Positions 60 to 18,616 of a stretch of DNA of 20,282 bases are shown piece after piece; position 1 is the first letter of the stretch, and each line of letters opens with the position of its first letter. The stretch covers positions 1-20,282 of the forward strand of contig CAXHJY010000891.1 in NCBI GenBank assembly GCA_964016885.1, written 5' to 3'. Origin of the DNA: Eledone cirrhosa. Lineage: Eukaryota. A model generated the notes under the pieces. The model was given only the letters and a program-made list of their open reading frames with translations. It was not told the origin of the DNA and searched no databases. A program made the translations under genes and the position numbers.

Positions 60-274
60 TTCGTTTCTGAATTTGTTTAGCAAGATTCTTTATCTGAAAT
101 CGTGTGTTGAAACCGATATTGTTATACTTTGGGAGGGTCATGTTGCCAATAAGAAACACACGCACCAGTTGCTTTCACTTCAATTTAATTTAATATATAT
201 TTATAAATTTACAAATTTATAAATTTCTGGTTGGTTGGTTGGTTCCACAACCAGATAGTTGTTTATATATATAT

Positions 275-319
275 AGTCATAGTTCTTTCGTCACACACTC
301 TGTGACCTCTTCAGTGACT
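275..319 (-). ncRNA. Minimal type-I hammerhead ribozyme motif (mirror copy of 418-462)
   Basis: Exact reverse complement of 418-462. Confidence 0.7.
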
Positions 320-417
320 GGGGATTTCTTTCTTCGTTTCTGTGCCTTTCCTTTCTTCTATCCTACGCCATTTTGTTTGTGTGTAGGAAAGGCACAGAAA
401 CGAAGAAAGAAATCCCC

Positions 418-462
418 AGTCACTGAAGAGGTCACAGAGTGTGTGACGAAAGAACTATGACT
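418..462 (+). ncRNA. Minimal type-I hammerhead ribozyme motif
   Basis: AGTCA-CTGAAGA-G-GTCAC(AGAGTGT)GTGAC-GAAA-GAAC-TA-TGACT. Helix I is AGTCA/TGACT, the CUGANGA and GAAA boxes are present, helix II is 5 bp, helix III is vestigial, and the cleavage triplet is CUA. Confidence 0.72.
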
Positions 463-621
463 ATATATATATAAACAACTATCTGGTTGTGGAACCAACC
501 AACCAACCAGAAATTTATAAATTTGTAAATTTATAAATATATATTAAATTAAATTGAAGTGAAAGCAACTGGTGCGTGTGTTTCTTATTGGCAACATGAC
601 CCTCCCAAAGTATAACAATAT

Positions 622-1002
622 ATATTATATATATATATATATATTATATATATTTATATATATTATATATATATATATATATATTATATATATATATATA
701 TATATATATATTATATATATATATATATATATTATATATATATATATATATATTATATATATATATATATATATATATATATATATATATATATATATAT
801 ATTATATATATATATATTATATATATATATATTATATATATATATATTATATATATATATATATATATATTATATATATATTATATATATATATATTATA
901 TATATATATATTATATATATATATATTATATATATATATATTATATATATATATATATATTTATATATATATATATATATATATATATATATATATATAT
1001 AT
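622..1002. repeat. Interrupted (TA)n microsatellite
   Basis: Direct reading of the sequence. Confidence 0.97.
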
Positions 1003-1150
1003 ATTTATTAAAATAACAGATTAAAGTTTAAGCAAAGAATCGCTGCTTTCACCCTTAACGGGATCTTCTACGGTTCTTATATATCTGATATATATTTATC
1101 CTCATCGAGCCCTCTTTGGATTTTAGTCTTCAAATTTATTATTATTATTA
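1003..1150 (-). mobile_element. Short PLE 3'-end fragment (family C): endonuclease C-terminal tail plus HHR-like motif at 1035-1078
   Basis: Recurs at 10331-10477 and partly at 18503-18616. The minus strand translates [10 protein letters not shown], resembling the LKTxxPxGLN C-terminus of Neptune-type PLE endonucleases. It is followed by AAGAACCG-TAGAAGA-TCCC(GTTAA)GGGT-GAAA-GCAG-CGATTCTT. Confidence 0.6.
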
Positions 1151-1153
1151 TAT

Positions 1154-1338
1154 GGATTGGCAGTATCAGTAGAGGGTTGGACGCCATGCTTTCCAGCATA
1201 GTTATGTCCCTTTACGATCTGAGTTCAAATCCCGCCGAGGTTGACTTTGCCTTTTATCCTTACGGGGTCGATAAAATAAAAGAACCAGTAATGCACTGGG
1301 TAATTGCTGGCCTTGTGCCTAAAGTAGACACAATTATT
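1154..1338 (+). mobile_element. tRNA-derived SINE with a MetaSINE-like central domain (octopus-type), degraded
   Basis: A-box-like TGGCAGTATCAG and B-box GAGTTCAAATCC (1221-1232). Core GACTTTGCCTTTTATCCTTACGGGGTCGATAAAAT, tail GGCCTTGTGCCTAAAGTAG plus ATT repeats. Family recognised from memory of octopus SINE consensus. Confidence 0.8.
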
Positions 1339-1377
1339 ATATATATATATATATATATATATATATATATATATATA

Positions 1378-1509
1378 GAAGTGGTTACACAACAGTTAGT
1401 TCACCATACCGAGAACAATTGTTTCACCTTCGCGGATCTTCAGCTCGGGATCGTCCCTTGGACTGAGTGCTCTACCACTACGGATATTACCTTCCAGTGT
1501 TCCACCGCT
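1378..1509 (-). mobile_element. About 130-bp HHR-containing island (family D), probable PLE pLTR or retrozyme-like fragment
   Basis: Complex sequence bounded by (TA)n on both sides, containing a well-formed HHR. Confidence 0.6.
1409..1448 (-). ncRNA. Minimal type-I hammerhead ribozyme with palindromic helix III
   Basis: Minus strand reads CCGAG-CTGAAGA-TCC(GCGAA)GGT-GAAA-CAATTG-TT-CTCGG. Helix I is a perfect 5 bp, both core boxes are intact, ACAATTGT is self-complementary, and the triplet is GUU. Confidence 0.8.
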
Positions 1510-15910: not shown

Positions 15911-16870
15911 TTATACTTGGGGAGGGTCATATTGTTATAATATTACCAGAAATAATAGCAGAACACACTCCCTGTTTGGTTTGGGTTGGTTTTCGCTTCT
16001 GTATCTTTTATATCTCCATAGTTAATTTATCTGGCAATCAATGTTTATCACTGATTGACCAACGGTTAAAAATACAGATATAAATATATATATATATATA
16101 TATATATATATATATAGTCTATCAAAGTTCTTTCGTCACACATCGGCAACATCATTAGTGGTACTATTATGTTTGCTCCCGTTGTGTTGTAATGTCTACG
16201 CCATTTATATAGTCTATCAAAGTTCTTTCGTCACACATCGGCAACATCATTAGTGGTACTATTATGTTTGCTCCCGTTGTGTTGTAATGTCTACGCCATT
16301 TATATAGTCTATCAAAGTTCTTTCGTCACACATCGGCAACATCATTAGTGGTACTATTATGTTTGTTCCCGTTGTGTTGTAATGTCTACGCCATTTATAT
16401 AGTCTATCAAAGTTCTTTCGTCACACATCGGCAACATCATTAGTGGTACTATTATGTTTGCTCCCGTTGTGTTGTAATGTCTACGCCATTTATATAGTCT
16501 ATCAAAGTTCTTTCGTCACACATCGGCAACATCATTAGTGGTACTATTATGTTTGCTCCCGTTGTGTTGTAATGTCTACGCCATTTATATAGTCTATCAA
16601 AGTTCTTTCGTCACACATCGGCAACATCATTAGTGGTACTATTATGTTTGCTCCCGTTGTGTTGTAATGTCTACGCCATTTATATAGTCTATCAAAGTTC
16701 TTTCGTCACACATCGGCAACATCATTAGTGGTACTATTATGTTTGCTCCCGTTGTGTTGTAATGTCTACGCCATTTATATAGTCTATCAAAGTTCTTTCG
16801 TCACACATCGGCAACATCATTAGTGGTATTATTATGTTTGCTCCCGTTGTGTTATAATGTCTACGCCATT
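15911..16870 (-). mobile_element. Family A-related pLTR in reverse orientation with its 5' 95-bp module amplified eight times
   Basis: TTATACTTGGGGAGGGTCATA at 15911 is the reverse complement of 15058-15078. Colinear similarity continues into the tandem array. Confidence 0.8.
16116..16870 (-). repeat. 8 x 95-bp tandem array; each unit carries a hammerhead fold with a CUAAUGA core
   Basis: AGTCTATCAAAG starts at 16116, 16211, 16306, 16401, 16496, 16591, 16686 and 16781. Only three substitutions were seen among the units. Confidence 0.95.
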
Positions 16871-16908
16871 GTTATTTAATTTATTAAATTAAATAAAAAT
16901 GGCGTAGA

Positions 16909-17272
16909 TGTACGGTCTCCACAGAAAGAGAGGAATTTGTGTATGTGGGTTCCACAAGTACCGAGTTCCAATGCCGCTTACACAACCACATGTGTAACTT
17001 TAGATACAAAAGCAAAGAGGTCCAACATTAGTCTAGCTGAGTTCGTGTGGAAGTTCAAGGATGAGAACCAGAACTTCAAATTGAGATGGAAAATCGTCTG
17101 CAGCGAGATTTGTCGGCTCTATATCTGTGTGAGTGGGGAGATCTTTAAACTACCCGGGCAGGCGATCAACTCTAGGTTCGAGATCCTGAGTAATTGTATG
17201 CATCGAAGGACCCATCTGTTTGCCCATCTCGCAGGTGCGCGCACCGCGAGGGGCCGATGTCTTACTTGCTGA
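16909..17272 (+). pseudogene. Frameshifted GIY-YIG endonuclease C-terminus of a second PLE clade (Nematis-like)
   Basis: The frame from 16909 gives CTVSTEREEFVYVGSTSTEFQCRLHNHMCNFRYKSK. The track frame then gives SLAEFVWKFKDENQNFKLRWKIV...INSRFEILSNCMHRRTHL. Clade label is tentative. Confidence 0.78.
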
Positions 17273-17334
17273 GCTAGTGACACGATAACTCCATTACTAG
17301 TCTCAAAACACCAACACACATCTTTTTCTTGCAT

Positions 17335-17878
17335 TTTCGCGAGTGTATTTCGGGATGGGAGAGCTTGTGCCCCCTGTTATTAGTGACTGCTTGTGGTTTC
17401 CAAAGCACTAATGGGGACACAGCCTCATAGGTGGCACGATGGTAGTGGCCAACAAATCTTACTCTCCTTTTACGTACAACGACAGATATGCGTTGGAGGC
17501 CGGCATATCTCTCTCTCAAAGTCAGATGTCGCTAGCTTATGTTCTGAATGCGTTGAAGCAGTCAAGTTTGGATGAACGCGTTTGGATGAACGCGTCTATG
17601 TTCCACTTCCATATAGCAAGATTGGTTGAATTGTTACTTGGAAGAGTCTGATCTCGGTGTAGTTGGAAAGACTTGAGCGCCAAACTCGATCCATCTTGTT
17701 GCAAACTAACCATGCTTGGGCCTTTCTGGTGGCGAAATCCTTCTCAGAGTCGATGATCCAGGACCCAAGGTACTTGGAATTCCCGGCTTGCTTGATATCA
17801 CTGCCGTTGATTGCTTTGATGCTGTTGCCTGTACAGTTTGATATGTACTTTGGTTTACCTTCGTTGAGATGAAGGCCA
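17335..17878 (-). pseudogene. RTE-clade LINE reverse transcriptase C-terminal/thumb fragment, degraded
   Basis: GLHLNEGKPKYI...SKYLGSWIIDSEKDFATRKAQAW...IRLFQVTIQPILLYGS and ISVVVRKRRVRFVGHYHRA...LVLWKP, with internal stop and deletions. Confidence 0.9.
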
Positions 17879-18010
17879 TATATATCATATATATATATAT
17901 ATATATATATATATATATATATATATATATATATATATATATATACAGAAACACACACACAAGTTGACTAAATACTAAACTATATATATATATATATATA
18001 TATATATATA

Positions 18011-18197
18011 GCGAGGGAAAAGTGGTAAGGAACCAGGTGGACCATAACGCACCAAAGTACTCAATACTTAGGGTAGTAGAGTGGGTAATAGGAGTAAGTA
18101 AGACCGCGACGGCTGAGCTCAAGCCGTTTCGACAGTACAGAATTAGCCGTCGAAACGGCTTGAGCTCAGCCGTCGGGGTCTTACTTACTCCTATTAC
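18011..18197. mobile_element. Family B repeat in inverted arrangement (49-bp arms 18085-18133 and 18149-18197)
   Basis: A minus-strand copy at 18011-18133 is followed by a plus-strand copy from 18138. The arms match 48/49. Flanked by (TA)n. Confidence 0.85.
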
Positions 18198-18384
18198 ATA
18201 TATATATATATATATACCATATATATATTTAAAATATATATATATACATTTATAAAACATATATGCTATAAATATATATAATATGTTAAGTATTTCCCTA
18301 GAAAATGCAAAGGAAAGAAGAGTGCTCTATGTATAGTACAGAGCTTTTTAATTACTTAATAAGCAACACAATATAATGATTCCA

Positions 18385-18449
18385 TTTCCAAATCTTTCGA
18401 GAAACTAGACGATTCTTACAGAAATGTCTAGCTTGGTCGTCAGACAAAA
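18385..18449 (-). ncRNA. Degenerate hammerhead motif with long helix II (family E)
   Basis: Minus strand reads CTGACGA-CC-AAGCTAGAC(ATTTCTGTAAGAATC)GTCTAGTTT-CTC-GAAA-GATTTG. Helix I and the cleavage triplet are poor. Confidence 0.45.
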
Positions 18450-18502
18450 CAGTTAATATATATATATATATATATATATATATATATATTAACTGTTTAT
18501 TA

Positions 18503-18616
18503 ACTTTAATCTGTTATTTTAATAAATATTTGCTCTACGGTTCTTATATATTTGATATATATTTATCCTTAGGGAGCCCACTTTGGATTTTAGTCTTCAA
18601 TTTTATTATTATTACT
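18503..18616 (-). mobile_element. Third, rearranged copy of family C
   Basis: TCTACGGTTCTTATA...CTTTGGATTTTAGTCTTCAA matches 1067-1132. The terminal ~27 nt are present in inverted orientation and the HHR-like part is missing. Confidence 0.7.

Follow-up and report, generated by a model that had tools for sequence, protein, structure and literature searches.

Hammerhead ribozyme motifs occur in several repeat families within a 20,282-nucleotide stretch of the genome of Eledone cirrhosa (contig CAXHJY010000891.1, analyzed over its full length and referred to here as the window). We interpret these motifs as hammerheads in the 3′ ends, or pseudo-long terminal repeats (pLTRs), of several families of Penelope-like elements (PLEs), and we predict that the intact copies self-cleave, mostly as dimers; we put the probability of this reading at about 85%. 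Low-complexity repeat makes up ~56% of the window, in which short islands separate (TA)n tracts, and TA or TA-rich flanks border most element ends.

Intact motifs exceed chance expectation

We scanned the window with a strict descriptor of type-I hammerheads: exact CUGANGA and GAAA boxes, at least 4 bp in helix I, at least 2 bp in each of helices II and III, and UH. Four intact motifs were found, at 418-462(+), 275-319(−), 1409-1448(−), and 15757-15799(−) (Table 1). The first two are the arms of one inverted duplication and were counted once. The three independent intact motifs compare with a mean of 0.007 and a maximum of 1 in 2000 dinucleotide shuffles of the 6,258 non-microsatellite, non-redundant bases, which answers the concern, raised in a first-pass annotation of this DNA, that shuffled sequence might yield hits at a similar rate.

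That annotation had listed 18 sites in about five families, each said to carry a hammerhead. Three of the 18 pass the strict descriptor; the remaining sites are decayed, altered, or halved. Taken family by family, the statement stands for A and D, which are intact, and for E at the family level, and falls for B, which has half a motif, and C, whose core is altered. The intact motif at 15757-15799(−), missing from the earlier list, represents a sixth family (F). The full type-I core (CUGANGA, GAAA, and UH within three helices, with helix I open) is present in A1, D, and F and, at the family level, in E. The Rfam search suggested at the same time did not bear out the motifs: no hammerhead family appeared in three sub-region scans or among the 150 of 540 whole-window matches listed, and the output consisted of microsatellite and hairpin noise. 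These variants may fall outside the Rfam models.

Family A adjoins an endonuclease gene

The family A motif at 418-462 has a 5-bp helix I, an additional G after A9, a G10.1-C11.1 pair, a 6-bp helix II, and a 2-bp helix III. The minimal hammerheads described from metazoan PLE pLTRs (PMC4209133, Cervera and de la Pena 2014) likewise combine a 5-bp helix I, an extra nucleotide after A9, G10.1-C11.1, a 6-bp helix II, and a tiny helix III, and they are situated after the endonuclease (EN) open reading frame (ORF); as here, those PLEs leave many solo and inverted copies and are represented by several families per genome. In the copy at 14833-14876, helix I is mismatched and the G10.1-C11.1 pair is gone. 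Its core begins 226 nt past the stop of ORF 14112-14612, and downstream of it lie a likely ORF start, at 15059, and then a tail.

ORF 14112-14612 has 1,965 homologues, the best being an Octopus bimaculoides protein (52% identity). Pfam GIY-YIG matches 14 of the 27 aligned members of its family, and C33, C38, C49, C60, Y72, G74, E75, R83, H87, and H108 are invariant in the alignment; the C-terminal GIY-YIG EN, the Cys linker, and the CCHH-type residues are those of EN+ PLEs. Long homologues carry reverse transcriptase (RT) motifs N-terminal to the matched part (Pfam RVT_1, E=2e-4, in one of nine scanned), and the window ORF lacks the RT part through 5′ truncation. A motif of the same type lies 3′ of the ORF in all three related metagenome loci: one is perfect, one is the published U3-A8 variant, and one has a single core mismatch. 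A PLE origin of family A is thus supported by the ORF, by the likely ORF start, and by relatives with the same motif, and the family appears Neptune/Nematis-like, the CX2-5CxxC-type linker being its one clade sign. In metagenome PLE locus L001, the minimal hammerhead at 1234-1276 shows the core covariation (U3-A8) that has been reported from PLEs of schistosomes.

When three independent family A copies are aligned, 87% of cells are paired under one structure. Four of the 13 pairs changed on both sides. None did so in any of the six slid controls, and 25 of 500 shuffles attain the observed level. Translation of the 3′ end common to the copies gives what is likely a PLE ORF start, which aligns with the ORF start of a relative (L003) at a score equaled in 2 of 2000 shuffles; alignments with two other N-termini are weaker, their scores being matched in 37 and 50 of 2000 shuffles. 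The parts of a pLTR (hammerhead, ORF start, optional tail, and inverted 5′ copy) are all found in family A, and the 3′ ends of four copies fall at two points ~60 nt apart, recalling the tail of PLEs (PMC11167929). In Poseidon PAc of Anolis (Frangieh et al. 2024, PMC11167929), the pLTR similarly covers the hammerhead, the ORF start, and an optional 3′ tail, and the target is AT-rich; its start codon lies inside the hammerhead, whereas that of family A lies about 135-230 nt downstream.

Family A copies have a AAATGGCG-type motif on or close to their 5′ boundary, with the hammerhead following after ~55 nt; the motif is found at about 367-376(−), 16861-16870(−), 16896-16905(+), and 14792-14801(+). 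It resembles a YY1 site and may mark a pLTR promoter.

Hydra-type hammerheads in families D, F, and E

Families D and F match the Hydra-type pattern CUGAnGAU...UGAAA with 0 mismatches and have a short helix II and an AC...GU helix III. Hydra-clade PLE hammerheads are described in the same terms (Craig et al. 2021, PMC8557442): CUGAnGA-U...U-GAAA, a position near the element end, and a (TA)n target. The basal U·U of helix II is already known (PMC3088659; PMC7229834) and, by our own count, occurs more often than any other form in hammerheads of Hydra-clade PLEs, in 14 of the 26 rows of File S2 of PMC8557442. Motif type and (TA)n target make D and F likely members of this group. The published Hydra-clade elements have an ORF, whereas none is attached to D, E, or F in the window. 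The one published octopus family in the literature searched, Hydra-1_Obim of O. bimaculoides (PMC8557442), differs from the families here in its helix sequences; short motifs of A, B, C, D, and F found no match among the Hydra-1_Obim hammerheads in the supplement of that paper, where line breaks could hide some. A scan of prokaryote genomes for the family D pattern returned nothing.

In the window, family E (18385-18449) keeps both boxes, with helix III broken and U16.1 missing. We aligned four sequencing runs on 18011-18455. Alternative letters at 18387, 18393, and 18394 account for 99, 88, and 95% of run X1 depth; with further letters at 18378, 18399, 18425, 18434, and 18436, seven mismatches become pairs and a GUA triplet appears. 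Among the 40 of 83 difference rows listed, the commonest read letters rebuild the full hammerhead motif. Its ACC...GGU helix III and the A-U at the base of helix II recur in Hydra-1_Obim (PMC8557442), and family E is probably a Hydra-clade PLE hammerhead as well. The PLE origin proposed in the first-pass annotation has direct evidence in family A and evidence from architecture (Hydra-clade motif type and TA flanks) in D, E, and F.

Contig depth falls across the predicted family E cut (18385/18386), from 5,573 to 181 in run X4 (31-fold) and from 43,986 to 7,763 in X1 (5.7-fold). That the cut site is where copies of family E begin was not accepted: X1 has an equally large drop in depth at 18430, clipping of short contigs occurs where the window copy diverges, and 16 of the 22 raw reads at 18378 (one mate direction) still span 18387. 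Because the raw reads have no step and clipping can explain it, we make no claim from it. Read-end pile-ups of run X18 at 18141, 18353, and 18375-18377 fall on AATT sites and are likely an artefact of a restriction site-associated DNA (RAD) library.

A frameshifted EN fragment at 16897-17233 resembles the Hydra EN alignment, a match made by eye, and stands apart from D, E, and F. A word-index protein search and a protein atlas gave nothing for it; no solved structure was a significant match. The fragment lies head-to-head with the family A array. The Hydra-like element is broken up toward its 3′ end by decayed reading frames at 17274-17871(−) that have no Pfam match; we take them to resemble the C-terminal part of an RTE-type long interspersed nuclear element (LINE) RT.

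Half motifs, altered cores, and a tandem array

All three family B insertions have the 3′ arm of helix II, C-GAAA, a 5-6 bp helix III, GUC, and six further conserved bases, and the forward copies begin 17-19 nt ahead of GAAA. No CUGANGA occurs at any of the three insertion sites in the window or, upstream of family B, among the consensus rows listed from read contigs; a GACCUGA at about 4810, upstream of copy 2, was rejected as part of another repeat. Having the 3′ half without CUGANGA, family B would not self-cleave as it stands. Family B is very abundant, as judged from 17,696 contigs of run X1 aligned on the B and E stretch, with a depth about twentyfold that of E (a depth ratio, not copy number). 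Pattern scans of viral contigs for families A and B, and of metagenomes for family B, found nothing. Family C copies at 1035 and 10363 have the core UAGAAGA, lack U16.1, and show three mismatches to the Hydra-type pattern; the UAGA part is present in all three copies.

It is possible, if rather unlikely, that A, D, E, and F alone derive from ribozymes and that B and C are unrelated short repeats resembling hammerheads by chance. Thirty of 400 shuffles also yield a relaxed C-like hit, so that family C stands barely above chance and is likely inactive; for B, a chance likeness is favored by the missing CUGANGA and by the contig loose ends upstream, which are mixed and AT-rich with an agreement of 0.46. 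Against a chance origin, the B half-motif appears in just 9 of 2000 shuffles (the pattern was written post hoc), B has inverted 5′ copies at two of three sites and TA flanks, as in PLEs, and C has the U...U helix II frame of D and F. The simplest reading of B, and a likely one, is a non-autonomous derivative of a PLE whose 5′ end is fixed and of whose hammerhead the 3′ half alone was kept; C is probably an altered Hydra-clade PLE hammerhead.

The sole tandem hammerhead array, with eight 95-bp units at 16111-16870, bears on the retrozyme alternative raised in the first-pass annotation. In the form considered here, some families (this array, or D, E, and F) would be non-LTR retrozymes that form tandem transcripts, self-cleave, and yield small circular RNAs. 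Every unit of the array has a hammerhead fold, and retrozymes, like the array, have a type-I hammerhead in tandem pLTR-derived units (PMC7229834; Li et al. 2026 preprint); they come from PLE pLTRs, some with equally short units (preprint 10.64898/2026.07.22.740005), and are present in mussels (PMC7229834). The preprint's definition calls for two or more successive units in tandem, each with a complete hammerhead. In the window array, the core reads CUAAUGA, a G5A change, in all eight units, and the motif is minimal rather than canonical. This change, in units that differ from each other by 0-2 bases, suggests local amplification of a likely dead copy and not an active retrozyme. The array is, moreover, joined to the remainder of the pLTR, and D, E, and F are solo copies within the window. 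We regard retrozymes as an improbable explanation and retain the assignment to PLE pLTRs.

A bolder set of proposals, which as a whole we consider very improbable, would have B cut in trans, E ends possibly set by cutting, and the C core possibly working. B may be a very abundant PLE parasite of ~140 bases that, behind its fixed 5′ end, carries the substrate half only (the 3′ arm of helix II, GAAA, helix III, GUC, and the 3′ arm of helix I), and the catalytic half on the RNA of a driver element may cut it. Many insertions of family E may owe their 5′ end to ribozyme cleavage, and the altered core of family C may still function. If true, the trans cutting of B would be a naturally occurring hammerhead made of two RNAs that ties a non-autonomous element to the element helping it. 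Finally, a chance origin of every motif within repetitive DNA, as weak folding scores and the lack of an Rfam hammerhead match in our scans might suggest, is practically untenable, being already refuted for A, D, E, and F by the shuffle test, the family A covariation, the repair of E, and the same motif in related loci.

Several points weigh against the assignment to PLE pLTRs. Family A is the one family physically joined to a PLE ORF, B to F being assigned through architecture, and the window protein of ORF 14112-14612 itself has no Pfam match. Families D and F are each single copy in the window. Minimum free energy folds of most motifs are no better than those of shuffles (z −2.4 to +1.1). 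The family A covariation comes from three sequences, with p about 0.05 under a lenient control, and helix III of this family, self-complementary at only 4 of 6 positions, forms an unstable self-duplex (+1.4 kcal/mol). The family E letters are drawn from the 40 of 83 difference rows listed, the helix II register was picked after the letters had been viewed, and one helix II position is still mismatched. Self-cleavage of the window motifs is a prediction from sequence, and only one of nine predicted Xenopus dimers cleaved in vitro (preprint 10.64898/2026.07.22.740005).

Other repeats in the window

Candidates at 15291(−) and at 7734-7795, the latter a one-mismatch descriptor match, were rejected as hammerheads. 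An array of 10 units of 97 bp (7825-8786) has CUGANGA in six of them without the helix II and GAAA arrangement and was likewise rejected; a 13-nt word of this array recurs at the 5′ edge of copy 1 of family B. Two 398-bp repeats (4217-4614 and 19255-19652) are 98% identical and both lie within microsatellites, with no Pfam match for two frames. Two pieces of a repeat resembling short interspersed nuclear elements (SINEs), at 1140-1330 and 15170-15260, share a 35-nt match; we assume this repeat to be common in octopus genomes.

Table 1. Hammerhead-related features of the window, by position
Feature	Positions	Strand	Details
Family A pLTR, inverted, long 3′ tail	60..375	−	Likely PLE ORF start 141->61; palindrome 127-610 at 95%
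Family A minimal type-I hammerhead, intact	275..319	−	Descriptor; twin of 418-462
Family A minimal type-I hammerhead, intact	418..462	+	Descriptor; predicted cut 457/458
Family C hammerhead-like fold, altered core	1035..1078	−	Element 1018-1129; likely inactive
Family D intact Hydra-type hammerhead	1409..1448	−	U·U at helix II base; palindromic 8-nt helix III; predicted cut 1414/1413
Family B copy 1, half hammerhead	1917..2094	+	Copy 1963-2094 (GAAA 1982-1985, GUC 2002-2004) after an internally deleted inverted copy 1917-1962
Family B copy 2, half hammerhead	4881..5008	+	
Family C copy 2	10363..10406	−	Element 10346-10457; 95% identical to copy 1
PLE ORF 3′ fragment, Cys linker and GIY-YIG endonuclease	14112..14612	+	5′-truncated at TA tract; homologues, Pfam on relatives
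Family A hammerhead, helices partly decayed	14833..14876	+	Both core boxes kept; 3′ of endonuclease ORF
Family F intact Hydra-type hammerhead	15757..15799	−	Helix I 6 bp; palindromic 6-nt helix III; predicted cut 15763/15762
Family A pLTR with amplified hammerhead segment	15905..16870	−	8 x 95 bp array at 16111-16870
Frameshifted GIY-YIG endonuclease fragment, Hydra-clade-like	16897..17233	+	Pfam GIY-YIG E=0.011, below cut-off
Family B copy 3, half hammerhead	18018..18197	.	Inverted 18018-18133; forward copy from 18134
Family E hammerhead, long helix II, decayed	18378..18451	−	Predicted cut 18386/18385; element to about 18285
Family C copy 3, rearranged	18497..18616	−	Hammerhead-like part mostly missing

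Proposed mechanism and implications

We propose that two lineages contributed: a Neptune/Nematis-like PLE with a minimal motif (A) and Hydra-clade PLEs, by motif type (D, F, probably E, and altered C). In both, the GIY-YIG endonuclease would nick (TA)n, as PMC8557442 and PMC11167929 suggest, and target-primed reverse transcription would begin near the RNA 3′ end and usually halt early, as the PLE literature suggests. With such early stops, mostly terminal, ribozyme-bearing pieces would pile up and later decay. The ribozyme would likely serve to trim tandem precursor RNA, possibly with protein assistance. Our prediction of dimer cleavage builds on work on tandem transcripts (PMC4209133; review, PMC6765202); with the palindromic helix III of D and F (self-duplex energies of −6.4 and −4.8 kcal/mol, respectively), a pair of copies within one tandem transcript would anneal and cleave one another. 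For PAc, hammerhead cleavage was dispensable for insertion in vitro (Frangieh et al. 2024, PMC11167929).

The hammerhead class itself is not new, and the families described here are additional members of it. Earlier publications describe hammerheads in PLEs, the targeting of (TA)n, and one case from octopus (PMC4209133; PMC8557442), so the first-pass description of the set as unannotated is right for Rfam and goes too far for the literature, in which the class and the O. bimaculoides example are in print (PMC8557442, File S2). Octopus is absent from the supplement text of PMC4209133 that was searched (one supplement file lay outside the search), and a literature search that left Repbase and Dfam aside found no dedicated survey of octopus or cephalopod hammerheads. 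The window adds to the PLE hammerheads recorded from genomes of cephalopod type, for which we found one published family in the literature, and Rfam, in the scans and matches listed here, overlooks them. The intact, halved, and core-altered forms that stand side by side here, in so many families, offer a good setting for asking whether cutting shapes insertion ends.

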